Notes under the pieces: generated by a model
The model's database searches: none
Seen by the model: the letters and a program-made list of their open reading frames with translations, nothing else
Told to the model about the DNA's origin: nothing
Made by a program: the position numbers and the translations under genes
In this document: positions 128 to 33,249 of the stretch, one piece after another
How positions within the stretch are numbered: the stretch's first letter is position 1
Layout of the letters: every line of letters starts with the position of its first letter
IMG/VR virus record: IMGVR_UViG_3300022756_000003
From: a virus
Direction: 5' to 3' (one strand)
DNA: 38,492 nucleotides

Positions 128-494
128 GCCGGGCAAACTCCGCGATGGCGACAAGGCTCGTGCGCACCGGCGCATCTGGTACCTCATCAGCGTCGGGCGC
201 CTCCCCAGTCCCCGCGCGTTTGCGTGCATGGACTGCGGGGCACCGGCTCGAGACTACGACCACTACCTCGGGTACGCGGTCATCCACCACCTGGACGTGG
301 AGCCGGTCTGCCACTCCTGCAATATCAAGCGCGGCTTCGCCCGGGGGGAGTTCCGCTCGCGCAAGGGCCAGGGGCAGAAGACCTTTGCCTGCCGCGTCTG
401 CGGGCGGGAGGAAGGCCCGTTCCGGCATGGCCGCTGCAACCGGTGCCGCCAGTACTTCGACGTCCACGGCGCTGACCGTCTCGGCCCCCCCTAG
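84..494 (+). CDS. HNH endonuclease with C-terminal Cys4 zinc ribbon
   Basis: 136 aa. ATG 84 preceded by AAGGAG. High third-position GC. Motifs CMDCGAPARDYDHYLGY...HHLDVEPVCHSCNIKR (HNH-type) and CRVCG...CNRCRQY. The start lies inside the terminal repeat. The gene is opposite in strand to both neighbours. Confidence 0.85.
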   Translation: MPVHVSPPKYPGKSRPGKLRDGDKARAHRRIWYLISVGRLPSPRAFACMDCGAPARDYDHYLGYAVIHHLDVEPVCHSCNIKRGFARGEFRSRKGQGQKTFACRVCGREEGPFRHGRCNRCRQYFDVHGADRLGPP

Positions 495-513
495 CTCCCG
501 GCGCACGGCATGG

Positions 514-660
514 CTACGGGCTGAACAGGAAGGCTAAGGCCAGGAAGCAGACCGCCGCCGACAGCAGGCTAAACCGGGGCGGCGCGGCGGGCACGTACAC
601 CGCCGCGATGGCCGCCAGGATGGCGGCGATGAGCAGCAGGATGAAGTGGATGCTGGGCAT
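514..660 (-). CDS. Small two-TM membrane protein, holin candidate (not in the ORF track, 48 aa)
   Basis: ATG 660 sits 7 nt after AGGAG and 11 nt downstream of the endolysin stop. Translation: MPSIHFILLLIAAILAAIAAVYVPAAPPRFSLLSAAVCFLALAFLFSP, two hydrophobic helices. Stop TAG at 514..516. Confidence 0.6.
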   Translation of the reverse strand: MPSIHFILLLIAAILAAIAAVYVPAAPPRFSLLSAAVCFLALAFLFSP

Positions 661-670
661 CGGCTCGCTC

Positions 671-1558
671 CTATCCGTTCCAGCTCACCGGTTGCCCGGG
701 GAGCCACGCGGCGACGCCCAGTTCGAACGCCTGGAAGCGCCCCTCCGGCTTGTCCTCGCTCGCCGGGATGACCTGCTCTTCGCTGACCGGGCGGCCCCGG
801 TAGCGGCCGGCGATCCACTCGTCACGCCACGCCGTGGGGAGGGCGAAGCCGGGGTCGGTGGCGCGCCAGTAGTCCCCCCAGAGGGCCGCCTGGACGGCCG
901 CCTGCTGCGCTCCGGTCAGGATCACGAATACCTCCTGCGGCGGCGGGGCCGCCCCCAGCTCGTTCGCTCGTGCCACGCTCGCCCAGAACCAGTCCTGCGG
1001 GTCAAGGGTCACCGCCGCGACCTGGGCTTGCGACCACCCGGTTTGCCAGAAGTCCCACGAGCCGCCCGGCGGCACGTCGTGCCAGAGGGCCAGGTGCAGG
1101 TGGGCGTACGGTTGAAACCCTGACCTCCCGCACGTGCCCAGCTGTTCGCCGGCGACGACCCGTTGCCCGGGGATGACGGTCATGGTGTTGAGGTGCGCCG
1201 CGTGCAGATAGCACCGCTCGGCCGCACGCTCGTCGTCGAGGTACAGCGCGAGGTGGTTCCCGAACCCCTGGCTCACCCCATTCCACCAGAGGACGTCGGT
1301 GACGACCCCACCGAGCGGGGCGACCACCGCCGCGCCCAGATCTGCGTCTCCCCCGCCGAGGCTATTCGCATCAATCGCCTCGTGGAACGCGCCACCGGCG
1401 TCACTCCATTGCAAGTAGCTGTAGCCGCCCATGAGGACGGCCGCTTCGCCGCTGCCGGCGGTGACGCCCTGGAGGACGACGTAGACGCCCGACACCTGGT
1501 CCACGGCGGGGATGGTGGTCGGGGTGAACGTCGGCGGCAGGTCGTTGGGGTGGGGCAT
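671..1558 (-). CDS. M23 (LytM-type) zinc peptidase, probable endolysin
   Basis: 295 aa, ATG 1558. Motifs HEAID (HxxxD), YLHAAHL, GQRVVAGEQLGTCGRSG and AHLHLAL (HxH). About 110-aa C-terminal domain of unknown type. A small TM ORF follows directly. Confidence 0.9.
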   Translation of the reverse strand: MPHPNDLPPTFTPTTIPAVDQVSGVYVVLQGVTAGSGEAAVLMGGYSYLQWSDAGGAFHEAIDANSLGGGDADLGAAVVAPLGGVVTDVLWWNGVSQGFGNHLALYLDDERAAERCYLHAAHLNTMTVIPGQRVVAGEQLGTCGRSGFQPYAHLHLALWHDVPPGGSWDFWQTGWSQAQVAAVTLDPQDWFWASVARANELGAAPPPQEVFVILTGAQQAAVQAALWGDYWRATDPGFALPTAWRDEWIAGRYRGRPVSEEQVIPASEDKPEGRFQAFELGVAAWLPGQPVSWNG

Positions 1559-2083: not shown

Positions 2084-3315
2084 TACGCTGCTCCTTCTAG
2101 GCTCTGCACACGCTGATCGAGCTGCTGCAAGGCAGCCAGTAAGACGCCGATTGAGCTACCGGGGCTGGTCTGCCCCTCCCCCACCAGAAAGAGGGGGTCG
2201 CAGTCCTCCGCAATGAAGCCGTGCTGGTGGAGGGCGGCGGCCACCAGGGGCGCCGCCGTCAGGCGCTGCTGGAGCACCGCCTCGGCCTGCTCCGGATCCT
2301 CCGGCAGGTCGTACCACTCCGGCCCCCGCCTGGGGGCCACGTAATCGAAGGTCACGGCGGGCGTGTCCCTGACCGCTTGCATCGCTCGCGCCGGGTCGAG
2401 GGGGGTGATGCCCTCCTTGGCGTCACGGGATGACGTGTTGATCGCCCCGGCCACGGCGGCCACGAGCACCCATCGGGTGGAGGGGTGCCCGCAGTACGCC
2501 TGGTTATCGAGCGTCGGCCCAAACCCCCAGGCGTTGTTGGCTTGGACGGCCCAGTTGCTGCTCATATCCTGGTGCGGTCGGAGGTACACCACGCCGACCC
2601 CGCTGCCGCCCGCTCCGAGGTCGAGGTTGTTCGTGGCCGACCGGATGGCCGCCTGTCCCCCATCCGGGGACAGGGTAAGTGTCCCGGTGGGGGCGAGCTT
2701 GAACCGCTCCACGCCCAGGCTGACCGGGTTCGCCCCGGCCGGGGCGCTGTTCATCGTGATCTGCCCGCCGCCGATGGTGAGCATCGCCGCCGGGCTGCCG
2801 GTCGCGTCCCGCACCCAGTTGGTGCCGTCGTGCCAGATGTTGCTCGTGAGGTCGAGGCGTTCGCCGCCCGCGATCTGGCCGATCCGTGCCGGAGACGGGG
2901 AGCCGGTTGACCACATCGCCAACGAGGCCCGCGTGCCGTCCACCCGCAGCGCCCCCGCCCCCGTGCGCTGCAGGGTGGCGTCGGCCACGCCCGCCGGCTT
3001 CGCCCCGAAGTAGAGGTGGTCGCGGATGATGGCGTCGCTGTTCATCGCCACCTGCCCCGTGAACGGCTTGCTCCCGTCCACCAGGGCGTAGGGCAGCAGC
3101 ACGGCCGGGTCGAGCTTGTCCACCGTGATCGACCCGGGCGGGATGGAGGCCACGGAGATGGGGGCGCCGTTCACGCCCCCGGTGTGGTTGTGGTCGCTCA
3201 GGCGGCGCAGCGCCGTCCACAACCCGCCGTCGGGCAGGGTGCCCGTCTCGTAGCGGCGGATACTGTCCCCGTCCACCGGGGCGGGCACGCTCATCACGCC
3301 AAGGGCGACCGTCAT
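2083..3315 (-). CDS. Tail fibre/spike protein with S74 intramolecular-chaperone C-terminal domain
   Basis: Only the last 410 codons of track ORF 2083..4962 are credible (MTVALGV…; ATG 3315 after AAGGA). The upstream part is an Arg/Pro/Gly shadow overlapping gene 3327..5477. C-terminus NTSSRDAKEGITPLDPARAMQAV..FDYV..HGFIAEDCDPLF..IGVLLAALQQLDQRVQSLE fits the autoproteolytic chaperone domain of phage fibres. Confidence 0.85.
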   Translation of the reverse strand: MTVALGVMSVPAPVDGDSIRRYETGTLPDGGLWTALRRLSDHNHTGGVNGAPISVASIPPGSITVDKLDPAVLLPYALVDGSKPFTGQVAMNSDAIIRDHLYFGAKPAGVADATLQRTGAGALRVDGTRASLAMWSTGSPSPARIGQIAGGERLDLTSNIWHDGTNWVRDATGSPAAMLTIGGGQITMNSAPAGANPVSLGVERFKLAPTGTLTLSPDGGQAAIRSATNNLDLGAGGSGVGVVYLRPHQDMSSNWAVQANNAWGFGPTLDNQAYCGHPSTRWVLVAAVAGAINTSSRDAKEGITPLDPARAMQAVRDTPAVTFDYVAPRRGPEWYDLPEDPEQAEAVLQQRLTAAPLVAAALHQHGFIAEDCDPLFLVGEGQTSPGSSIGVLLAALQQLDQRVQSLEGAA

Positions 3316-7722: not shown

Positions 7723-8877
7723 CTAGCTGGTGCGCGCGTCCCGGGCGTCGGTCGTCGCGCGGCGGGCGGTCGCGCGGGACGCGCCGTCGTCGGCCCGGTC
7801 GCCCGAGGCCAGGGCGCGCTGCGCGTTGGCCTCGAGCACCCGCGACTTGTCGCCCGAGAGGGCCAGGGTCTCCTCCTCCGTGGCGCCCAGCGCCCCGACG
7901 AAGGTGCCCTGGGTCAGCACGGCGGCCGGGTAGCTCGCCGCCCGCGAGGGCTGCTGGAGCGTCACCGGGTTGGCCGCGACCCACGCAAGTCTAAAGGTCA
8001 CGCGGAGCGCCTTCAGGTCCTGCTGCATCAGGTTGGCCACGACCAAACCGCCGGCGTCGGTGATGACCCCCTCGGTAAAGATCCGCATGTTGATATCGTC
8101 CCGCACGGCAATCTTGAAGCAGGACGTGTCGAGGGCGAACGCGAGCGCGTTGGCCGCGCCGGCGGCGAAGCCGGTGAGCCCCATCTTGGAGACCTTGGCG
8201 GGGATGTTCCACACCTCCCCGGCCCACTTCCCGCTCTGGGCGCCGCTGGCGGCGGGCCCGGCGTTGGGGTAGAGGAACCCGCGGTTGCCGTCGCGGGCGT
8301 TCCGCAGCACCCCCCGCATGGTCTGCCGGAGCAGCCAGGCGTCCGCCTCGTAGCCGTCGCTCTCCAGCAGCATGAGCGCCGCGTTGAGGTCGTCGAAGAT
8401 GTCGTGGGTGGCGCTGGCCACCGCGCCGGTCACGACGTTGCCCGCGGAGGTGGCGTCGGTCAAAATTCCGTTCGGCCACAACGAGGGCTTCCCCGTCCCG
8501 AAAAGCACGGCCCCATCAATAGCCGCCCCCATGCTCTCGGTGATCTGCGGCTTCAGGAGCGTCCAGAGGTCGTAGTCGGCGTCGTCGTAGATGGTGTCCG
8601 GGATGGGCACCAACACGGCCAGCTCCTCGGCGTTCAGGTAGAGATTGTCGAATTTGGCGTCGGACGTCTGCTTCAGTCCCGAGTCACCATTGACAAAGTA
8701 AGCCAGCGGCTTCCGGTCCAGGATGGGCAGGCGGCGCTGCTTGCGGGACATCGGCACCCGGTCGAACGTGGAGAGGGCGAAGGACTTCTCGGTGGTGGCG
8801 GTGATGATCTCGTGGGCGGCGTCTTCCGGGATCAGCGGGCCCGCTTCGGTCCGGTCGATCATGGCGCTGTACGACAT
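7723..8877 (-). CDS. Major capsid protein, HK97 fold
   Basis: 384 aa, ATG 8877. Typical N-terminal block LIPEDAAHEIITATTEKSFAL..RVPMSRKQRRLPILD..AYFVNGDSGLKQTSDAKFDNLYLNAEELAVLVPIPD..DDADYDLW…ITESMGAAIDGAVLFG. No delta domain. About 55-aa charged C-terminal extension. Confidence 0.95.
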   Translation of the reverse strand: MSYSAMIDRTEAGPLIPEDAAHEIITATTEKSFALSTFDRVPMSRKQRRLPILDRKPLAYFVNGDSGLKQTSDAKFDNLYLNAEELAVLVPIPDTIYDDADYDLWTLLKPQITESMGAAIDGAVLFGTGKPSLWPNGILTDATSAGNVVTGAVASATHDIFDDLNAALMLLESDGYEADAWLLRQTMRGVLRNARDGNRGFLYPNAGPAASGAQSGKWAGEVWNIPAKVSKMGLTGFAAGAANALAFALDTSCFKIAVRDDINMRIFTEGVITDAGGLVVANLMQQDLKALRVTFRLAWVAANPVTLQQPSRAASYPAAVLTQGTFVGALGATEEETLALSGDKSRVLEANAQRALASGDRADDGASRATARRATTDARDARTS

Positions 8878-9964: not shown

Positions 9965-9993
9965 ATGGTAGGCCCTGTCAAGCAAGTAGTCAA
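9965..9993 (-). promoter_or_regulatory. Candidate promoter for the scaffold-capsid genes (TTGACT-N17-TACCAT)
   Basis: Minus strand reads aTTGCTTGACtacTTGCTTGACagggccTACCAT. -35 TTGACT = 9993..9988 and -10 TACCAT = 9970..9965, spacer 17. A 9-mer TTGCTTGAC occurs twice, 12 nt apart. This is the lowest-GC spot between two long genes. Confidence 0.45.
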
Positions 9994-10031
9994 GCAATGC
10001 GACTGAGCGTGTAAAGAACGGGGACCACCGG

Positions 10032-20090: not shown

Positions 20091-22307
20091 CTAGGTGCCC
20101 ATCTGCTGGCCCGGGAGGGGCCGCATGTTCGGCGGCGGCCCCTGCACGTTCGGTCCCCCGCCGGGGTTGCTCGGCAGGCCCCCGGGCGCCATGTTCGGCC
20201 CGGTGCTGCCGGCGCCGCCGACGCTGCCCGGTGGGGGCGGCGCGAAGGGCATGCCTTGGCCGGGGGCCATGGCGTCCGGCGCGCCGAGCTGCAGCCCCCC
20301 CGGCCCGGGCATCCCGGGCGCCATCCCTGGGGGGGCACCCGGGGGCATCCCGGGCGGCCCCGGCGGACCGGGGGCGCCGCCCAGCTCTTCCATGGCCTGG
20401 GCCTGCTGGATGCCCAGGAGCTGGAAGATGCGGTCGGTCAGGCGCTTCTGGATCTCCGGGCTCCGCTTGAGGTTCTCCACCAGGAGCTGCCGCTCGACGG
20501 CGCCGGGGTCCTGCCCCAGCTCCTCCATGGCCTGCGTCCGGGAGGTGAGCCCCGCCTGCAGCATCTCGACCTGGGTGCGCACCTCGAGCACGCGGTTGGA
20601 GGGCACCTCCGCGTCCAGGGCCACCCGGTAGCGGTGCACCCCCTTCAGCTCGTCGGGGCCCACCGCCAGCCAGCCCTCCCGCGCGCCCCGGACGCCGGGG
20701 TTGTACCCGCGGCGGGGGGACACCGTGGGCAGGTTGCCCCAGCAGTACACCTTCTCCCCGATGCACTCGTCGATCAGGTAGCTCTCGAAGCCCACCCGCT
20801 CGCTCAGGGCGAACTGGGCGTTCCCCAGCAGGGGCGAGTAGCGCAGGCTCCCCAGGTAGGCGCTCTGGTTGAGGGCGTAGCCGCTGGCCCCGGTGTCGGC
20901 GCCGGCGAGCGCGTCGGGCAGGATGCGCTTGAAGATGTTGACCGTGTCCTCCTTGGCCTGCTGGAGGTCGATCCCGGTGCGGGGCGGCTCGATGGGGGAC
21001 ACGTCGAAGGGCAGCACCTCGCCGGGCACCACCTGCACCGGGCGCTGGGCGTCCCGCTCCCCGCCGTCGATGCCGAAGGGGGCCACGCCCGGGCCGGCCG
21101 CGGCGCCGATGGCGCTCACCATGTTGGCCCCCGGCGGGGCGTTGCGCTTCCAGGAGGGGAAGCCCGTCATGAACGCCGCGTTCGAGGTGAGCGTGAGCAG
21201 CTGGTCGTAGAGCTGGAACAGGTTCAGGTAGCCGAAGAGGACGCCCAGGGACATCAGCTCGGGCTCGCGCTGCCCGGTGGTGATGCCCCCGGCCCGGAAG
21301 TAGGGGCCCCGCAGGGTGCGCGTCTCCGCGACCCCGTAGTGGTGGCGCACGCTCTTGACGATGGTGCCCTTCCCCAGCGCGGCCCCGCCGCGGGAGGCGC
21401 CCTGCCCCGGCCCCACCAGCGAGTAGTGCACGTCCTGCCAGTCCCACAGCTCCACCAGATCGAGGCTGGCGACGCCGGACATGACCTGGCCCCACTGGGA
21501 GCGGGGCAGGCCCAGGTGCTCCTCGGGGACGACGCGGCCCCCGGAGCCCAGCCCGGCGCCGAAGCGGGTGAGCGCCTCGAGGTAGGGGATGGACTTGATC
21601 TCCGCCGCCAGGGTCATCCCGCCGGCCTCGGAGGCCCAGTGGTAGAAGGTGCTGGGGGGGATGTCCGTCGACTTGATGGGGTAGGCCGCGGCCCGCTTGG
21701 CCTCGTCGGTCAGCTGGTCGTACGCCTGCTCCCGCTGGTGGGCCTTGCCCCGCCCGTCGGCGTACTCGCCGTACTCGGCGTCCTCCGGGTCACGCATCCG
21801 CCGGTCGAGGTCGCGCACCGTGCGGGAATACGCACGCCACGCGGATTGACTCCGTTCGACGGTCTTCATGATCGCTTCGCCGTAAGCGACCAGCGACCAC
21901 ATGTAGCTGCGGAAGAGCTGCCGGCCCGCCTCCTGCTCCTGGCGCGTCCACGACGCCGAGAAGAATTTCTCTCTGAGCTCGGCGTTGTTCTGCGCCTCGC
22001 TCCCGCTGGCGACCGGCTCGAAGTTGACCTCCGGCGCGTTCACCGTCAGGGCCGCGGTGATGGAGTTCACCATGTCCAGCGCCAGGGGCGCCTTGGTGAC
22101 GATGGTGCTCTCCTCGTACGCCTTGGGCACCTTGACGTCGTAGCGCCCGAAGAGCACCCGCTCCGTGGCCTGGAGGTTCTTGTCCCGCAGCGCGAAGTCG
22201 CTGAGCAGCTGCTGGGCGACGTCGGTGACGTAGCCCTCCGCGGCGGGCACGTAGGACTTGCCGCGGCCGCGGACGCGCTCGTCGTCCGGGCGCTTGCGTT
22301 GGGCCAT
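20091..22307 (-). CDS. Portal protein candidate (738 aa) with Pro/Gly/Met-rich C-terminal tail
   Basis: ATG 22307 (MAQRKRPDDE…). The track ORF extends further upstream through shadow sequence. Called from its size, its place as first gene of the structural operon, and its divergence from terL. The last ~95 aa are a PGM-rich low-complexity tail in a high-GC3 frame. Confidence 0.75.
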   Translation of the reverse strand: MAQRKRPDDERVRGRGKSYVPAAEGYVTDVAQQLLSDFALRDKNLQATERVLFGRYDVKVPKAYEESTIVTKAPLALDMVNSITAALTVNAPEVNFEPVASGSEAQNNAELREKFFSASWTRQEQEAGRQLFRSYMWSLVAYGEAIMKTVERSQSAWRAYSRTVRDLDRRMRDPEDAEYGEYADGRGKAHQREQAYDQLTDEAKRAAAYPIKSTDIPPSTFYHWASEAGGMTLAAEIKSIPYLEALTRFGAGLGSGGRVVPEEHLGLPRSQWGQVMSGVASLDLVELWDWQDVHYSLVGPGQGASRGGAALGKGTIVKSVRHHYGVAETRTLRGPYFRAGGITTGQREPELMSLGVLFGYLNLFQLYDQLLTLTSNAAFMTGFPSWKRNAPPGANMVSAIGAAAGPGVAPFGIDGGERDAQRPVQVVPGEVLPFDVSPIEPPRTGIDLQQAKEDTVNIFKRILPDALAGADTGASGYALNQSAYLGSLRYSPLLGNAQFALSERVGFESYLIDECIGEKVYCWGNLPTVSPRRGYNPGVRGAREGWLAVGPDELKGVHRYRVALDAEVPSNRVLEVRTQVEMLQAGLTSRTQAMEELGQDPGAVERQLLVENLKRSPEIQKRLTDRIFQLLGIQQAQAMEELGGAPGPPGPPGMPPGAPPGMAPGMPGPGGLQLGAPDAMAPGQGMPFAPPPPGSVGGAGSTGPNMAPGGLPSNPGGGPNVQGPPPNMRPLPGQQMGT

Positions 22308-22316
22308 GTGGCCCCC

Positions 22317-22322
22317 ATCATA
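22317..22322 (-). promoter_or_regulatory. Candidate -10 hexamer TATGAT 9 nt upstream of the portal ATG (leaderless-type)
   Basis: Minus strand reads gtggcgTATGATgggggccacATG. No good -35. Confidence 0.35.
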
Positions 22323-22333
22323 CGCCACATTGT

Positions 22334-22452
22334 TTGACAATCGAGCGGCGATTGCTTTACAGGATGACGCGATGACCACCGCTGCGCCGCCGCTGCCCGC
22401 CGCGTCCTGGGACGCCGTCGCGCTCGAGCTGGCCCGGCGGCGTCCGGAGGCG
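22334..22452 (+). pseudogene. Remnant copy of the terL promoter, leader and first ~26 codons
   Basis: TTGACA-N18-TACAGGATGACGCGATG, then MTTAAPPLPAASWDAVALELARRRPEA. This parallels TTGACG…TACAGGGTACGCATG and MAVTVAAEAPSWEAVALELARRDPAC of terL. Similarity ends at the HNH stop codon (22453). Confidence 0.55.
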
Positions 22453-22956
22453 TTACTCCCCGAGCATCTCCATGTACTGCCGCCGTGCTTCAACCGCCTC
22501 CTCAAGGGTGTCGAAGCGGCCGATATGGACCTGCTTGTACATGACGTGGACGCGAGCAATCCAGCGACCGTTCGGGGTCTGTCGCACCCCAACGAACCCA
22601 CTTCTGCCTCGCGCGTCCTGGTTCCGCATGTTGGTGGGGTGGCTCACCAGTCGCAGGTTGCTGCGCCGGTTGTCCAGCTTGTCGCGGTTGATGTGGTCAA
22701 CCACGAGGTCGCCGCGGCGCCAGACGCGCAGGGGCTGCTCAGGCAAGCCCAGAACCTCGCGGTGCATGTAGACGACCCATTGGCGCACGACGCCCGGGGC
22801 GACCGCCCGCGTAATGCGCCGCGCGGCGTACCCGCTCCCCTGGAAGTACCACCGATGCGCCAACAGCCGGCGGTAATCGGCCGCGTCGACCAGGGCGTAC
22901 TTCCCTCGGGTGAGGGGGATCACGCAGGGGCCGAGGGTAAACTTAGGCGGCGCCAT
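22453..22956 (-). CDS. HNH homing-type endonuclease with AP2 DNA-binding domain
   Basis: 167 aa from ATG 22956 (GGAGGA RBS). YMHREVLG…DLVVDHINRDKLDNRRSNLRLVSHPTNMRNQ is HNH_3-type. SGFVGVRQTPNGRWIARVHVMYKQVHIGRFDTLEEAVEARRQY is AP2-type. Confidence 0.9.
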   Translation of the reverse strand: MAPPKFTLGPCVIPLTRGKYALVDAADYRRLLAHRWYFQGSGYAARRITRAVAPGVVRQWVVYMHREVLGLPEQPLRVWRRGDLVVDHINRDKLDNRRSNLRLVSHPTNMRNQDARGRSGFVGVRQTPNGRWIARVHVMYKQVHIGRFDTLEEAVEARRQYMEMLGE

Positions 22957-22995
22957 GGGAGCTGGTCCTCCTGTGGTGAAGTGGGCGGCGGGGTG

Positions 22996-23025
22996 TTGAC
23001 GCACCTCGCCGCCTGCGCCTCTATT
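22996..23025 (+). promoter_or_regulatory. Candidate terL promoter (TTGACG-N18-TCTATT)
   Basis: TTGACGCAC at 22996, then the AT-rich tctatttta at 23020..23028, 20 nt before ATG 23046. Read on the other strand, the same AT patch gives TAAAAT upstream of the HNH-AP2 gene. Confidence 0.35.
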
Positions 23026-23045
23026 TTACCGGCTACAGGGTACGC

Positions 23046-24554
23046 ATGGCCGTGACGGTGGCCGCCGAGGCGCCCTCGTGGGAAGCGGTCGCGCTCGAGT
23101 TGGCGCGCCGCGACCCCGCTTGCTACGCCCTTGTGGCGCACGGACTGCGCCCGGCGCCGCACCACCGGCGCTGGCTGGCGGCGCTCAGAGAGACGGTGGA
23201 GACGCCCGGGGGGCGGCTGCTGCTCATCGCGCCGCCGGGGACGGCGAAGAGCACGTACACCAGCCAGGTGCTGCCCCTGTGGTATCTGGGCAACCACCCC
23301 GACCGGGCGGTGTTGGCCACCACCAGCAGCGACGTGATGGCCAGCGAGTTCGGCGGGGTGATCGACCTGGCCCTGCGCCAGAACGAGGCGCACGGCGCGG
23401 TGTTCCCGGACGGGGCGTGCCGGCCGGACCCGGCGCGGGGGTGGAGCAGCGACGGGCTGTACCTCAAGGGCGTCCCGCCGGAGACCAAAGACCCCAGCTA
23501 CCGGGTGGCCGGGCTGGGCTCGAGCGTCATCGGCTCCCGGTGCCACCTGCTGCTGCTCGACGACCCGGTGACCCAGGAGACGGCCCAGAGCGAGGCGGAG
23601 ATGCGCCGCACCCGGCGCTACCTCGACCTGACCCTGCTGACCCGGCTGCACCCCGGGGGCAGCGCCGTCGCCATCATGACCCGGTGGGGCGAGGCGGACG
23701 TGGCCGCCCACCTCATCGCCCAGGGGTGGCGCGTGGAGGTGTGGCCCCAGCTCTCGGAGGACTACGCGGGGGACGAGCGGGACGGGGAGGGGCGCGCCGC
23801 GCTGTGGCCGGGGCGGTACCCGCTGGCCTGGGTGCAGGCGGAGCGCCAGCGGCTGGGGACGGCGCAGTTCGAGCTGATCCACCAGGGCAACCCCTTGCTC
23901 ATGGGGGGCGCGGTGTGGCGCGCCGCCGGGTGGTTCCGCGATCTGCCCCCGCACACGCAGCAGCTCACCGCGCGGGGGACGCCCTTCCTCGAGGAGTGCG
24001 TCCGCTGCACCTACATCGACACGGCGTGGAGCGAGAAGCAGACCGCGGACTGGACGGCTGCCGTCACGTGCGCCTACCACCCGAGCGACCCGGCGCGCTG
24101 CCTGTACGTGCTGGGGGCGTGGCGCCGGCGGGTGGACGAAGACGGGCTGGCGGAGGCCCTGGCCGAGCACCTGCTGGCGGTGCGCCCCCACGTGGTGGGG
24201 GTGGAGCAGGCGGCCTACAAGCAGGCGGCCACCGGCGCGCTGGTGCAGGAGCTGGTGTACCGCACCAACGGCCGGCTGGCGACCACCGTGCGGGCCATCC
24301 CCAGCGTGGTGGACAAGGTGACCCGCGCCCGGCCGGCGGCGGCCAAGGGCGAAGCGGGGCTGCTGTGCGTCGACCGCGACGTGCCCGAGATGGAGGCACT
24401 GATCCGGGAGTGCCTGGCGCTGCCCGTGGGCGCCCACGATGACCTCTGCGACGCCCTCTCGGGGGCGGCGGCCATGTGCCTCTACGGGGCGGAGACGCTC
24501 ACCGCGGGGCAGGTGACGGCCGGCGGGCCGCCGCAGCGGCTGCGCTTCGGGTAG
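23046..24554 (+). CDS. terL: Terminase large subunit
   Basis: 502 aa. Walker A LLIAPPGTAKST, Walker B HLLLLDDP, and a C-terminal RNaseH-like nuclease half with acidic motifs (YIDTAWS, GVEQAAY, AHDDLCDAL). Confidence 0.95.
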   Translation: MAVTVAAEAPSWEAVALELARRDPACYALVAHGLRPAPHHRRWLAALRETVETPGGRLLLIAPPGTAKSTYTSQVLPLWYLGNHPDRAVLATTSSDVMASEFGGVIDLALRQNEAHGAVFPDGACRPDPARGWSSDGLYLKGVPPETKDPSYRVAGLGSSVIGSRCHLLLLDDPVTQETAQSEAEMRRTRRYLDLTLLTRLHPGGSAVAIMTRWGEADVAAHLIAQGWRVEVWPQLSEDYAGDERDGEGRAALWPGRYPLAWVQAERQRLGTAQFELIHQGNPLLMGGAVWRAAGWFRDLPPHTQQLTARGTPFLEECVRCTYIDTAWSEKQTADWTAAVTCAYHPSDPARCLYVLGAWRRRVDEDGLAEALAEHLLAVRPHVVGVEQAAYKQAATGALVQELVYRTNGRLATTVRAIPSVVDKVTRARPAAAKGEAGLLCVDRDVPEMEALIRECLALPVGAHDDLCDALSGAAAMCLYGAETLTAGQVTAGGPPQRLRFG

Positions 24555-24879
24555 TCGCCCGCTGCCGGCGGCGCTCCCGGATGGCCCGGGCGGCCCGGGT
24601 GACGGGGTCGAGGCACTCGAAGTTGCGCTGGTGGGAGGCGATGAGGTGGCCGCAGCGCGGGCAGGCGAAGGCCTCCCGCTCGAGGCGCGCCCGCAGGGCC
24701 AGCACCTGCTCCCGGGTGGCGGTGATGACGGCCTGCGCCGCCGTGCAGCAGGGCAGGGCGCAACAGGGGCGGGCCGCCTCGGGATCGAGGGTGGCCCACA
24801 GGCGGCGCCGGGTGGGGCAGGTGCAGCGCACCGCACCGGCGGGGGCCGCCCGGTTCCAGCCGCCCCGGGGGGTGGTCAC
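24499..24879 (-). CDS. Cys-rich small protein (about 126 aa)
   Basis: GTG 24879 overlaps the upstream stop (GTGA). High GC3. Cys clusters RCTCP…PCCALPCC…CPRCGH…FEC. The 3' end overlaps the terL 3' end by 56 nt in convergent orientation, so the true stop and extent are uncertain. Confidence 0.55.
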   Translation of the reverse strand: MTTPRGGWNRAAPAGAVRCTCPTRRRLWATLDPEAARPCCALPCCTAAQAVITATREQVLALRARLEREAFACPRCGHLIASHQRNFECLDPVTRAARAIRERRRQRATTRSAAAAAARRPSPAPR

Positions 24880-25208
24880 GGCAACAGCCACCAGGGGTGC
24901 TTCCCGCGGAGCGCGGCGCCGGCCGCCGGCTCCCCTCCCCTCCAGGCAGGACGATACGGGAAGTGCCGACGGATCTCGGCCATCCCCCCTGCCCCGAGGC
25001 CCCGCGTCGCCCTGAGGACCGCGTCCGGGGTCGTCGTGACCTCCGCCGCGCTGAAGTACCCCCCACGGGCGAGGGTGTTCGCCGTCCGCGCGCTCAGCCG
25101 CTCCAGCAGCACGCGCTCGACCGGAGGCCACGCCCAGTGCCCCCCGCCTCCGTCGAACGCGCCATGGACCCACCGCGCATGCCGGTCGGCAGGTAACGCC
25201 CCGGCCAC
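24876..25208 (-). CDS. Small protein with RNA polymerase alpha-subunit C-terminal-domain-like helix-hairpin-helix
   Basis: 110 aa from GTG 25208, 2 nt after the upstream stop. LLERLSARTANTLARGGYFSAAEVTTTPDAVLRATRGLGAGGMAEIRRHF aligns by eye with alpha-CTD [11 protein letters not shown]…IGDL……LLK.PNLGKKSL.EIK..L. Confidence 0.65.
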   Translation of the reverse strand: MAGALPADRHARWVHGAFDGGGGHWAWPPVERVLLERLSARTANTLARGGYFSAAEVTTTPDAVLRATRGLGAGGMAEIRRHFPYRPAWRGGEPAAGAALRGKHPWWLLP

Positions 25209-25209
25209 G

Positions 25210-25497
25210 CTAGTGCCCGCCCTCGTCGGCCCCCTGCTCAGCGTCCAGCGTCCCCAAGCACCAGCCGTCGGCATACCCGGCGCAGTAGTCGCAGACGAAG
25301 CGCGCCCCCTCCGGGAACCGCTCGCGCCACTCCAGGGCGGTGCCCCGCTCCCAGGGGGGCACATCCGCCCGCCAGGTGCACGCTGCGAGATCGCGGTCAT
25401 CGCCGGGGAAGCCGGGGCGGACGACGTGCCAGAGCGCCACGCGGGCGCCGTTCAGCGCCCGCCGCCGCGCCCAGCGAGGGGCGGCCTGGCTACCCAT
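25210..25497 (-). CDS. Hypothetical protein (95 aa)
   Basis: ATG 25497 overlaps the upstream gene by 8 nt. High GC3. Trp- and Cys-containing (…FVCDYCAGYADGWCLG…). Confidence 0.7.
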   Translation of the reverse strand: MGSQAAPRWARRRALNGARVALWHVVRPGFPGDDRDLAACTWRADVPPWERGTALEWRERFPEGARFVCDYCAGYADGWCLGTLDAEQGADEGGH

Positions 25498-25840
25498 CGT
25501 CGGCCCCCAGCAGGGCGCGGGTGAGGCGCTCGACGTCGGCCTCCTCGACGTGGGCGCGGAGCAGCTCCCGGTGGGTCACCTGGGCGTCGACGGTGATGTC
25601 CGCCTCGAGCACGGCGACGGCCTTGCCGAACCCGCGGTCGGCCAGCCACTGCGCGGCGGCCATGCGCAGGGCGGTGGGCTGCTTGGGGTGGCGCAGGACG
25701 TTCAGCATGTACGCCACCAGCTCGGCGCCCTCTCGGGTCTCCTCCCGCACCAGCGCGGCCAGGCCCTTGGGGCGACCCCCGGGGTTGGGCGACGGCCGGC
25801 CGGGGAGGAAGCGACCTGATGGCCCCCTGTTCTCAGGCAT
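25490..25840 (-). CDS. DUF5681-like protein (possible small terminase / DNA-binding protein)
   Basis: 116 aa from ATG 25840. N-terminal GRFLPGRPSPNPGGRPKG matches the G.F.PG.SGNP.GRPKG signature common in phage proteins near packaging genes. The terS assignment is speculative. Confidence 0.7.
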   Translation of the reverse strand: MPENRGPSGRFLPGRPSPNPGGRPKGLAALVREETREGAELVAYMLNVLRHPKQPTALRMAAAQWLADRGFGKAVAVLEADITVDAQVTHRELLRAHVEEADVERLTRALLGADDG

Positions 25841-30769: not shown

Positions 30770-31381
30770 ATGCTGCTCATGACCGAGACGGAGCGCACGC
30801 TGCCGGGGCCCGAGCCGCCGGCGGAGGAGGACGGCAACGGGCACGGGGACGGGGGCGAGGACGGGCCGTCGCCGTACGAGCGGGCGCAGCGGCGGCTGCG
30901 GGTGGACGGGGTGGTATTCGGCAAGGCGCTCACCCGGTTGCGGGAGGCGGAGGGCTGGTCGGTGCGGACGCTCTCCCGCAAGAGCGGGGTGCCGCTGACC
31001 ACGCTGGCCAAGCTCGAGCGGGGCGAGACGCCGAAGCCGGACGTGGAGGTGGCCTGCGCCCTGGCCCTCACGTTCGGCTACGGCAGTCCCGGGGCCATGC
31101 TGGGCGCCGGGTCCACCCGCGGCCCGGCGGGGCGCGGGGGCGGCCGGTACGCGGCCGACGTGCCGGCGGCCCTGACGCTGGAGCGGCTGGTGGAGAGCCT
31201 CCTGCGCGGGATCTGGGCCGCCAACGACGCCCGCCCCGGCGGGGCCCTCGTTACCGAAGCGCTACCGGAGGGGGAGCCCGGCGAGCGGGTGAGCGAGGCG
31301 CTCCGGCGGGTGCCCGGCCCGCCGGGGATGAACCTCTACGTCCCGCTCGTGGTGCTGGTCGAGCCCCGCACGGTGGGCTAA
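30770..31381 (+). CDS. CI-like repressor (XRE HTH)
   Basis: 203 aa from ATG 30770 (alternative 30779). FGKALTRLREAEGWSVRTLSRKSGVPLTTLAKLERGETPKP. Divergent from the Cro-like gene. No obvious S24 peptidase motif in the C-terminal half. Confidence 0.85.
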   Translation: MLLMTETERTLPGPEPPAEEDGNGHGDGGEDGPSPYERAQRRLRVDGVVFGKALTRLREAEGWSVRTLSRKSGVPLTTLAKLERGETPKPDVEVACALALTFGYGSPGAMLGAGSTRGPAGRGGGRYAADVPAALTLERLVESLLRGIWAANDARPGGALVTEALPEGEPGERVSEALRRVPGPPGMNLYVPLVVLVEPRTVG

Positions 31382-33249
31382 GCGGCGTGCAGGAGAAGCC
31401 CGCCGCCGGGGGCCACCGCCAGGTAGACGGCGGGCGGGACGGACGTACGCGCCAGTGGGAACGACCAGACCTGGTCGTGTCCGCTCGTGCCCACGGCGGC
31501 CAGCAGGGCGCGCACCGCCTCCGGCACCGCCGGCGGGAACCCCACCTCCACCCGGTCGCCCGTCCCCAGCCAGGGCCGGTCCGGGTCGGCCCGGTTCGCC
31601 GGGTGCACCACCGCCCGGGGCCGGAACAGGGCCACCGCCTGGCGGAAGAGCCGGGGCGCCGCGTCCGGCGCCGCGAGCAGGTCGACCAGCTGCCCCGCCT
31701 GGGCCGCGAACCCGCGCACGTTGGCCAGCACCTCGTCCACCTCGGCCAGCCGGGCCTCCGCCGTCCGCAGGTCGGCCAGCAGGCCGTCGCGGTGGCGCCC
31801 CTTCTCGTCCAGCTTGCGGGCGAGCACGTCGCGGCCGTAGCCGGCGGGCGTGACCGCGATCTGCTCCGCGAGGTTGTCCGCCTCGCCCTCGAGGTCGGCC
31901 AGCGTGGCCCGGATGGCCTCCCGCTCCGCCCCGGCCCGGAGCCGGTCGGCCTCCGAGACGCCCCCGGCCTCGCGGTACTCCCGCAGCAGCCGCTCCACCT
32001 CCGCCGGTTGGTTGAGGACGCCGAGCAGGGCCAGGAAGACCTCGCGCTCGAGCGCCTCCCGGCCGATGCTCACCGGGTGGGCGCAGACCCGCTCCCCGTA
32101 GCGGTTGGCCTTGCAGTCGTAGCGGGGCGTGCGCCGCCGCTGCCCCGTCTCCGGGTCGGGCTGGCCCCACCGGGCGTAGTGGGCCCGCAGCTCGCCCCCG
32201 CACAGCCCGCAGACCGCGTAGCCGCCGAGGAGCTGCCAGTCGCTCTGGGGCGCTCCTCCCGCACGCCGCGTGCCCCGGTGCGCCGCCTGCCGCGCCGCGT
32301 TGGCGTCCAGCGCCGCCTGCGCCGCGTCGAACTCCTCCGGGGTCACGGGCGGGCGGCCCTCGGGGGCGCGCAGGTCGGGGCCGGCGCCCGCCGGGGTGAG
32401 CACCTGCTTGCGCACCCGGCGCCCGAGGCGCTGCTCCACGTCGTTGCGGTAGCGCAGGCCCTTGGGCTCGCCGCAGTACAGCGGGTTGCGGAGCAGCAGG
32501 CTGAGGCTGCGCTGGTACCAGACGGCGCCGCCCATGGGGGCGGGCACCCGCCGGCGGGTGAGGGCGCTGGTCACCGCGTTCTGGCCCTGCCCGGCGATGA
32601 CGTCCAGGAAGGCGGAGCGGAGCACCTGCCACTCGCCGTGCTCCGGCGGGAGGAAGCGGTAGTGGGTGTGGGCGTCGTCGGCCCAGACGGTGCCGTAGGG
32701 CGTCTTCGGGCCGTGCAGGGTGCGCCCCGCGTCCAGGCGGGCCCGCTTGTTGCGGCTGAACTGCTCCTTCAGGCTCTCGATGCGCAGCGTGTTGAACTCC
32801 ACCATCACGGTCTTGCCGATGCGCCCGATGGGGTTGTCTTCGAACGCCTGCTGCACGAACGCCAGGCGGGCGCCGTACCGCTCGAGGAGGTGCTCCAGGG
32901 CGCCCACCTGGGTGCTGGTGCCCCCCAGGCGCTCCGTCTTCAGGCAGAGCACGACGCCGACCGCGCCGGCCACGACGGCGTCCCGCAGGCGCGCCAGCTC
33001 GGGGCGCTCCCAGAACGCCTGGGAGGAGTAGATCTCGCGGTAGACCGCGGCGATGAACCAGCCGGGCCGGGCCGCGGCGTAGGCCCGGCCCTCCTGCTCC
33101 TGGGTGTCGAGGCTGCGCTTGACGTCGCGCTCGCGGTCGTCCTTGTTCCGCTTCACCCGGACGGGGCGCCCGTCCGGCCCGACGTCGAAGTCCTGGTCGG
33201 GGGAGGACACCCGCAGGTAGAGGTGGACGGGGACGGGCTCAGCGGCCAT
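31378..33249 (-). CDS. Large serine recombinase (integrase)
   Basis: 623 aa. Resolvase-type catalytic N-terminus VHLYLRVSSPDQ, recombinase domain, Cys cluster CGLCGGEL…RYDCK…VCAHP, then a long coiled-coil segment. Confidence 0.95.
   Translation of the reverse strand: MAAEPVPVHLYLRVSSPDQDFDVGPDGRPVRVKRNKDDRERDVKRSLDTQEQEGRAYAAARPGWFIAAVYREIYSSQAFWERPELARLRDAVVAGAVGVVLCLKTERLGGTSTQVGALEHLLERYGARLAFVQQAFEDNPIGRIGKTVMVEFNTLRIESLKEQFSRNKRARLDAGRTLHGPKTPYGTVWADDAHTHYRFLPPEHGEWQVLRSAFLDVIAGQGQNAVTSALTRRRVPAPMGGAVWYQRSLSLLLRNPLYCGEPKGLRYRNDVEQRLGRRVRKQVLTPAGAGPDLRAPEGRPPVTPEEFDAAQAALDANAARQAAHRGTRRAGGAPQSDWQLLGGYAVCGLCGGELRAHYARWGQPDPETGQRRRTPRYDCKANRYGERVCAHPVSIGREALEREVFLALLGVLNQPAEVERLLREYREAGGVSEADRLRAGAEREAIRATLADLEGEADNLAEQIAVTPAGYGRDVLARKLDEKGRHRDGLLADLRTAEARLAEVDEVLANVRGFAAQAGQLVDLLAAPDAAPRLFRQAVALFRPRAVVHPANRADPDRPWLGTGDRVEVGFPPAVPEAVRALLAAVGTSGHDQVWSFPLARTSVPPAVYLAVAPGGGLLLHAA

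Follow-up and report, generated by a model that had tools for sequence, protein, structure and literature searches.

Why should the start of an essential phage gene occur twice, on either side of a second gene that is read in the opposite direction? This question is raised by the large terminase gene (terL) of virus record IMGVR_UViG_3300022756_000003, a stretch of 38,492 nucleotides (nt) with a G+C content of 74%, which is referred to here as the window and to whose positions all coordinates apply. The gene enclosed by the two terL starts encodes an HNH_3/AP2 endonuclease. An original prediction for this locus held that the promoter, leader and first codons of terL had been duplicated, and that the endonuclease had arrived together with a donor terL 5′ end, leaving the resident 5′ end stranded. 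Our best reading is that a selfish endonuclease gene resides inside the DNA-packaging gene terL, which is kept intact by a substitute start, and we consider it probable that the whole constitutes an end-replacement homing cassette.

The upstream copy of the terL start (copy A) begins where TACAGGATGACGCGATG terminates in an ATG at 22372..22374, and its codons 1-27, MTTAAPPLPAASWDAVALELARRRPEA, end at 22452. The downstream copy (copy B) is the start of terL itself at 23046, MAVTVAAEAPSWEAVALELARRDPAC, and is in frame with the terL body. Re-reading of the sequence reproduced every letter and coordinate given previously, including TTGACA at 22334..22339, and a recount agreed that 13 of 16 aligned residues are identical, eight of the 13 being encoded by different synonymous codons. 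The endonuclease gene lies exactly between the repeats, as had been claimed, with zero spacer between the end of copy A and the reverse-strand stop codon (TTA) that begins at 22453. A repeat search recovered a 35-nt core (22405-22439 and 23076-23110) with 83% identity and a spacing of 671 nt, which is the length of the inserted block described below; overall, the two copies are about 55% identical. Local alignment of the whole regions gave a score of 47, compared with 19.3 ± 2.8 (maximum 33) for dinucleotide shuffles, none of 2000 of which reached it. The coding parts by themselves scored 43, compared with 17.9 ± 2.9, and were matched by none of 3000 shuffles; the coding similarity therefore exceeds that of shuffled sequence. 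For the noncoding upstream stretches (22308..22371 and 22957..23045), the score of 14 was reached by 1018 of 3000 shuffles (12.9 ± 2.1) and by 37% of other genome windows, and the resemblance between TTGAC..TACAGG elements was likewise at chance level. Since the repeat signal lies wholly in the coding parts, the duplication comprises the first 26-27 codons, and the promoter is not demonstrably included; the predicted duplication thus holds for the codons and fails for promoter and leader. Among 107 loci compared, the motif W[DE]AVALELARR occurs twice in the window phage only.

To which copy the resident gene belongs is indicated by its relatives. A protein search returned 74 terL homologues, the closest of which, P0001 (94% identical), starts with MTTAAPPLPATSWDAIALELARRRPEAYALVAHG, that is, with copy A leading directly into terL. 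On its contig, L060, the gap between a 738-amino-acid (aa) gene (−) and terL (+) measures 63 nt. Altogether, five lineages free of the HNH gene were identified (L060; L086/L087; L088; L089/L090; L094), in each of which the 738-aa gene (−) and terL (+) diverge across a gap of 63-82 nt with no HNH gene between them. In L060 and L075, the copy-A sequence runs uninterrupted into terL (RRRPEA/YALVAHG, the slash marking the position of the junction in the window). In a multiple alignment of terL 5′ ends, copy A shares 92% of its nucleotides with L060 and 94% with L075, and copy B is 55-64% identical to all relatives sampled. Past the junction, terL of the window is 94-95% identical to L075 and about 90% identical to L060. 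The surrounding sequence follows the same pattern, as the resident intergenic region (22308..22371) aligns over its full length with the 63-nt intergenic region of L060, and the 738-aa gene shares 94% aa identity with its L060 counterpart. The possibility that copy A marks an independent conserved gene is ruled out, since it is the terL start of the relatives; the comparison identifies this short upstream fragment as a gene remnant and not as a new small gene. Both the existence of relatives lacking the HNH gene and the match of their terL start to copy A, not copy B, support the predicted stranding of the resident end, as does the polarity of the identities.

Judged from these alignments, a foreign block of 671 nt has been inserted into the resident terL precisely at the boundary of codons 27 and 28 (Table 1). 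Its left junction reads CCGGAGGCG followed by TTACTCCCC, and its right junction CCCGCTTGC followed by TACGCCCTTGTGG, the boundary being ambiguous by one T. The block is absent from L060, L086-L090 and L094. The empty site reads GAGGCG/TACGC, or GAGCTGGCCCGGCGGCGYCCSGAGGCG followed by TACGCSYTKGTGGCGCA in the form found in L060 and L075, and a precise empty junction in the letters of the window would be CCGGAGGCG joined to TACGCCCTTGTGG. Because the block brings its own start, terL remains a single intact open reading frame (ORF) without intron or intein. The locus thus combines an endonuclease ORF and an in-frame foreign gene end within one gene with a displaced native end, and the stranded end groups with close relatives, which the inserted end does not.

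Table 1. Features of the terL locus in the window
Feature	Coordinates	Strand	Remarks
738-aa gene	20091..22307	−	Left neighbour and putative long left homology arm; ORF and gene call
Resident intergenic region, 64 nt	22308..22371		TTGACA at 22334..22339; TTGCTTTAC motif at 22352..22360; old terL leader
Copy A, stranded resident terL start, codons 1-27 (ATG + 26)	22372..22452	+	Truncated right after RRRPEA
Inserted block, 671 nt	22453..23123		HNH gene, control region and substitute terL start
HNH_3 + AP2 endonuclease gene, 167 aa	22453..22956	−	Ribosome-binding site GGAGGA, complement of 22966..22971
Cassette control region, 89 nt, noncoding	22957..23045		Conserved block 22974..23027; hairpin 22981..23016
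Copy B, substitute terL codons 1-26	23046..23123	+	Working N-terminus; ends RRDPAC instead of RRRPEA
terL	23046..24554	+	phrog_38, E 6.5e-73; ORF uninterrupted from 23046
Resident terL body from codon 27 on	23124..24554	+	Putative right homology arm

The polarity of these identities also bears on whether the terL start was simply duplicated in place, its copies then diverging and the HNH gene inserting between them later. As such a history would require, the two starts repeat each other directly, with strand and order in common. It nevertheless predicts that the working copy should be the one near the relatives, and the reverse is seen: the dead copy A is 92-94% and the working copy B 55-64% identical to them, and the sequences upstream of each copy share no relationship. 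As the dead copy resembles the working genes of relatives and the working copy looks foreign, duplication in place with later drift is excluded, and we attach hardly any credence to it. An assembly artefact is also ruled out. At least 22 contigs were examined for the arrangement, originating from ENA (megahit), JGI and Logan assemblies, and the same arrangement was independently assembled in at least that number from different samples and with different assemblers; the nine for which DNA was compared are identical to the window across 22000..23400 and match it at 99.9-100% over their whole length. A public collection has entries for the exact terL protein in 27 of its blocks. Among GenBank phages, no close relative was found, the best terL match having 31% aa identity and the sole DNA match covering 53 nt inside another HNH gene; a search of a genome collection for relatives returned just one distant metagenome-assembled genome, and relatives in IMG/VR are all 69% identical or less, with canonical gene order. 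A metagenome scan by terL alignment, the patterns of which were too general, yielded at least 24 loci, L075 among them.

A second lineage bearing the cassette, L061, places the insertion in a temporal perspective. Its terL is 88% identical to that of the window at the aa level, and it carries a 164-aa HNH_3 gene in the same place and orientation, with 70% nt and 65% aa identity to the HNH gene of the window. The left junction is as in the window, consisting of CCGGAGGCG, the stop codon and CTCCCCGAG. Copy A persists there only as a short degenerate remnant, located between the 738-aa gene and the end of HNH. Since the coding part of copy A has mostly decayed in L061 while HNH and terL are intact there, it is dispensable and subject to decay over time. 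In the window, copy A shows no divergence in excess of neighbouring sequence, which points to a recent arrival of the cassette in this lineage.

The enclosed gene resembles those of homing enzymes in several respects. It matches PF13392 (HNH_3) with 37 bits (cut-off 24.8) and phrog_99 with an E-value of 5e-30, and a sequence match to the TEM1 AP2 domain was found in the PDB (E 0.006). The catalytic columns D87, H88, N96, N100, N109 and N112 are invariant in six homologues, and the motif is intact. An AlphaFold model of the protein has a predicted local distance difference test (pLDDT) score of 83, and Foldseek returned an AP2 domain (root-mean-square deviation 0.9 Å over 36 columns) and I-HmuI (1u3e) as best matches, each with probability 1.00. 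With a G+C content of 66.5% and a G+C content at third codon positions (GC3) of 85%, compared with a GC3 of 97% in terL and the 738-aa gene, the HNH gene looks both foreign and intact in composition and motif. Its distribution is one of presence and absence among collinear close relatives, the window phage and L061 possessing it and five lineages lacking it; a homologue with 48% identity, P0077, lies in an unrelated low-G+C context. At the same locus in L075, positions 264..785 (+), the gap between the 738-aa gene and terL is filled by an ORF with GIY-YIG and helix-turn-helix domains (PF01541, E 5e-8), the stop codon of which overlaps the terL ATG, and the occurrence of an unrelated endonuclease gene at this locus favours the homing interpretation. 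A group I or II intron or an intein is ruled out as the vehicle: no Rfam intron family was detected at E ≤ 1 across 21800..23800, and the HNH gene is antisense to terL, which is uninterrupted from 23046; the gene is therefore neither intron-borne nor part of an intein.

HNH proteins encoded beside terminase genes are reportedly able to act as packaging factors, and the HNH gene here lies between a gene in the portal position and terL. The protein could accordingly be regarded as a terminase packaging accessory resembling HK97 gp74, the terL start having been remodelled for co-expression. Against such a role, the HNH gene is absent at this locus in relatives whose terL is 83-94% identical, and the protein does not qualify as a member of the HK97 gp74 type. 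It belongs instead to the HNH_3 + AP2 family and has the I-HmuI-like fold that homing enzymes typically show; the codon composition of the gene is foreign, and L075 has a GIY-YIG gene in its place. We therefore regard a packaging accessory as very unlikely.

The noncoding part of the block is its best-preserved component. Its conserved control block, TGGTGAAGTGGGCGGYGGGGTGTTGACGCACC, is identical at 50 of 54 nt (93%) between the window (22974..23027) and L061 (1885..1937), while the coding DNA on its flanks reaches 70-84%; a search of IMG/VR did not recover the block. It comprises a 16-bp GC hairpin, whose loop region includes TTGACG (22996..23001), and then TCTATTTT. On the + strand, the hairpin was marked as terminator-like, and the control region folds with −45 kcal/mol (z −2.7), a structure kept in L061 with one bulge. 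This block could serve as an operator or attenuator, or it could halt read-through transcription that starts at the stranded promoter. Because the sequence upstream of copy B is homologous to the control region of the L061 cassette, promoter B, which would drive terL, is best assigned to the cassette and probably does not represent a duplicate of promoter A. A further element, TTGCTTKAC, has three exact matches in the window, compared with 0.13 expected; its occurrences include a tandem pair at 9977..9997 (−), a site at 22352..22360 (+) and, with one mismatch, a site at 22329..22337 (+). It is found paired, in either orientation, in the gaps between the 738-aa gene and terL of most relatives (L061, L075, L086, L088, L089, L092) and may be a phage-specific promoter or operator element.

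Copy A could also have been retained for a function: its promoter may drive antisense RNA that restrains the nuclease, or the 738-aa gene may need the stretch for control from upstream. No excess divergence is seen in copy A, its ATG or the sequence ahead of it, all of which are intact. The frame of copy A is part of a 265-aa ORF (22258..23055, +) that runs antisense across all of HNH and ends 10 nt inside terL, with the terminator-like hairpin situated just where such an antisense transcript would end. The decay of the coding part in L061, where HNH and terL remain intact, argues against a retained function, as do the failure to detect a consensus promoter and the expectation of long shadow ORFs in DNA of 74% G+C, of which the 265-aa ORF is probably one. 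On balance, retention of copy A for function seems quite unlikely.

How the cassette may have spread is suggested by the insertion point. The stretch ALELARRRPEA/YA is among the best-conserved of the family and is kept even in relatives only 55% identical overall; RRRPEA/YA, with the junction hexamer GAGGCG, is conserved in nearly all relatives free of the HNH gene. Both carrier alleles differ there, the hexamer having changed from GAGGCG to GCTTGC (RRDPAC) in the window and to GCCGCC (RRSPAA) in L061. At the sequence level this change looks like the self-immunity of homing endonucleases, a resemblance that falls short of proof. In the proposed mechanism, the HNH enzyme would nick or cut terL alleles that lack the HNH gene, its site being in or close to the conserved CGGCGnCCnGAGGCG/TAyGC. 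During co-infection, repair would then copy the cassette from the HNH-bearing genome, with copy A and the 738-aa gene serving as the left repair arm and the terL body as the right arm. Every such homing event would copy the block and leave the recipient's own start behind as a fresh copy A. The carrier would be immune to its own enzyme, because copy A stops at the site and copy B has other bases there. Repeated copying of this kind would account for one shared junction together with a copy A that is fresh in the window and decayed in L061. A trace of co-conversion may also be visible: a direct count past the junction gave 17 mismatches to L075 in 340 nt, five of which are clustered at 23141..23156, and the first ~35 nt past the junction (to about 23156) may represent a tract derived from the donor.

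The main rival to homing is a single illegitimate or homeologous recombination, in which a fragment of another phage, comprising HNH gene, promoter and terL start, entered on a single occasion, through a crossover within terL on one side and a non-homologous join at codon 27 on the other, and was inherited passively thereafter, the HNH protein having no role in its spread. Such an accident is compatible with the clonality of the window form, whose contigs are 99.9-100% identical, with a possible microhomology of 1-3 nt (T or TAC) at the junctions, and with the presence in this phage group, for example in L102, of further insertions that lie between duplicated gene ends and lack an obvious nuclease. 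It is less easily reconciled with a left junction common to two lineages in which the HNH proteins differ by 35% at the aa level and the flanking genes by about 12-16%. The contrast between the fresh copy A of the window (92-94%) and the decayed one of L061 is more easily explained by repeated transfer into new recipients, and the insertion lies in a very conserved stretch that is altered in both HNH-bearing alleles. A single accident is thus unlikely, though less so than the other alternatives considered here.

Several observations nevertheless weigh against the homing cassette. Only two HNH-bearing lineages, the window and L061, were found, and neither a donor nor a copy-B-type N-terminus occurs among the 74 terL homologues, the best score being 77, compared with 132 for copy A with P0001; both points also favour the single accident. 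The first ~10 codons of terL are hypervariable family-wide, so that some of the divergence of copy B may be ordinary. The immunity signature is imperfect, since the HNH-free L092 and L074 read RRRPAA, and the support for a co-conversion tract consists of five clustered sites. With regard to the enzyme, the AP2 match (PF00847) reaches 28.8 bits, under its cut-off of 33.3, and the Foldseek E-values are weak (0.01-0.02; 0.019 for I-HmuI 1u3e). With regard to expression, no sigma-70 consensus promoter was found on either side, and a terminator-like hairpin stands 30 nt ahead of the terL ATG.

The wider phage family displays further variation around terL. In the window, the genes around the locus are all on the − strand with the exception of terL. 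The 738-aa gene has no family match in Pfam or PHROG and is called a portal gene from position only, as in canonical relatives it comes after terL, both on one strand. terL is the sole + gene among − neighbours throughout the window clade (window, L060, L061, L075, L086-L090, L092, L094); in distant relatives (L001, L062, L093, L095-L102), a terS-like gene, terL and the 738-aa gene are all on one strand, from which it follows that terL alone was inverted in place in the clade. Three small genes (24499..25497) separate terL from the terS-like gene (25490..25840), and the terL 3′ end overlaps a convergent 126-aa gene (24499..24879, −) by 56 nt, L060 and L094 being annotated alike. A large serine recombinase gene (31378..33249, −) with Resolvase, Recombinase and Zn_ribbon_recom domains indicates that the phage is temperate.

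The gap between the 738-aa gene and terL is also occupied in L092, where a 98-aa ORF of no known kind lies at 7724..8020 (+). This copy belongs to a related, frameshift-ridden prophage beside a PASTA-kinase gene in a 363-kb contig. The locus is a hotspot at which endonuclease genes of different families insert. Across the family, terL is modular over its first ~30 residues: several lineages (P0007, P0013, P0017, P0021, P0024, P0027, L093) have YSDTDAEYAEALEAARLNPALYALLAHG as an alternative to the WDAVALELARRRPEA module, regardless of the identity of the remaining protein, and the module boundary coincides with the insertion point of the cassette. At 1562..3001 of L102, the terS-like gene and terL are separated by about 1 kb of extra ORFs; of these, the last, at 2597..2956, ends with EADVERLTRALLGADEERG, duplicating the terS-like C-terminus EEADVERLTRALLGNDDG, and no recognisable nuclease is present. 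Among the terL homologues, P0074 contains a LAGLIDADG_3 domain (PF14528) and covers just 41% of the query; it may be an intein-bearing terL. P0058, P0070 and P0073 are partial matches too.

Taken together, the observations permit a broader reading, which we put forward tentatively as possible. A start-replacement cassette would be a third way for phage homing endonucleases to enter an essential ORF, besides introns or inteins and gene splitting. In this scheme, the cassette would supply a control region, start codon and N-terminal codons and re-make the stranded copy at each homing event; it could drive the swapping of modular terL N-termini, and the stranded promoter may feed an antisense transcript that tempers the nuclease. 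The significance of the locus lies in the prospect that, by means of a carried start and with no need for splicing, a selfish nuclease gene can settle within the coding sequence of a gene that the phage cannot spare. This would extend a mechanism of fungal mitochondria, where 3′ ends are replaced, to phages and to 5′ ends, and it offers a possible explanation for mosaic terminase N-termini. It also carries a warning for annotation and phylogeny, as the first 26 codons of terL, and possibly ~35 nt more, have a history different from that of the remainder. With the presumed target, the putatively immune allele and the recipients at hand as sequences, the system is directly testable.

Comparable arrangements are known from several kinds of mobile DNA. 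Some integrative elements insert at one end of a gene for a tRNA, a tmRNA or a protein and bring a substitute for that end with them. As at the terL locus, direct repeats of the gene end bracket the element, one of them working and the other a displaced fragment. Unlike the locus described here, these elements use an integrase and short identical att cores, whereas the present repeats are diverged and the block is without a recombinase; the nearest integrase is the serine recombinase at 31378..33249, which serves the whole phage.

Free-standing phage homing endonucleases that practise intronless homing include SegF, SegG and MobE of T4, alongside HNH nickases of the I-HmuI type (PMC2988022, PMC2790892). 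What the terL cassette has in common with these systems is a nuclease gene that stands free, varies in its presence between close relatives and lies beside a conserved essential gene, together with a presumed target that differs in the carrier and the expectation of flank co-conversion. Those genes, in contrast, sit between genes, split a gene into two polypeptides or ride introns and inteins, whereas the present insertion lies inside an ORF and is compensated by a carried substitute start. In the parts of a review of T4 mobile DNA reached by term search, split genes only are treated, with no duplication, pseudogene, remnant or gene-end replacement (PMC2988022). A full-text literature search of limited coverage found no phage precedent, an absence that is not proof of novelty.

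The closest parallels are the mORF elements of fungal mitochondria, in which an endonuclease gene is accompanied by a foreign gene C-terminus and the native C-terminus is displaced downstream; cases comprise atp6 of Allomyces macrogynus, atp6, atp9, cox2 and nad3 of Glomus, atp9 of Rhizopus and cox2 of Mortierella, and for mORF hybrids the endonuclease has been shown biochemically to drive the mobility of the element (PMC3630166). Partial duplications of atp6 and cob flanked by GIY-YIG or LAGLIDADG ORFs have also been described (PMC6279837). In both mORFs and the terL locus, an endonuclease within an essential ORF brings a replacement end and the gene remains whole. The native end persists as a stranded, diverged direct repeat that matches close relatives, with 91% identity to a relative in Glomus atp6 (PMC3630166) and 92-94% here, while the two copies are far apart from each other, at 63.5% in Glomus atp6 (PMC3630166) and about 55% overall, or 83% in the core, here. 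Differences concern the end that is replaced, which is the 3′ end in mORFs and the 5′ end here, so that expression signals and a start codon have to come with the block as well; the endonuclease, which is a LAGLIDADG or GIY-YIG ORF fused in frame or downstream in mORFs and an HNH_3/AP2 gene on the opposite strand here; and the host, which is a high-G+C temperate phage with a large terminase gene as the target. The earlier remark that such a configuration had not been seen described for a terminase gene accordingly needs qualifying (PMC3630166): on the best reading of this comparison, the terL locus is not wholly new and would be the mirror image of the fungal mitochondrial mORF elements.

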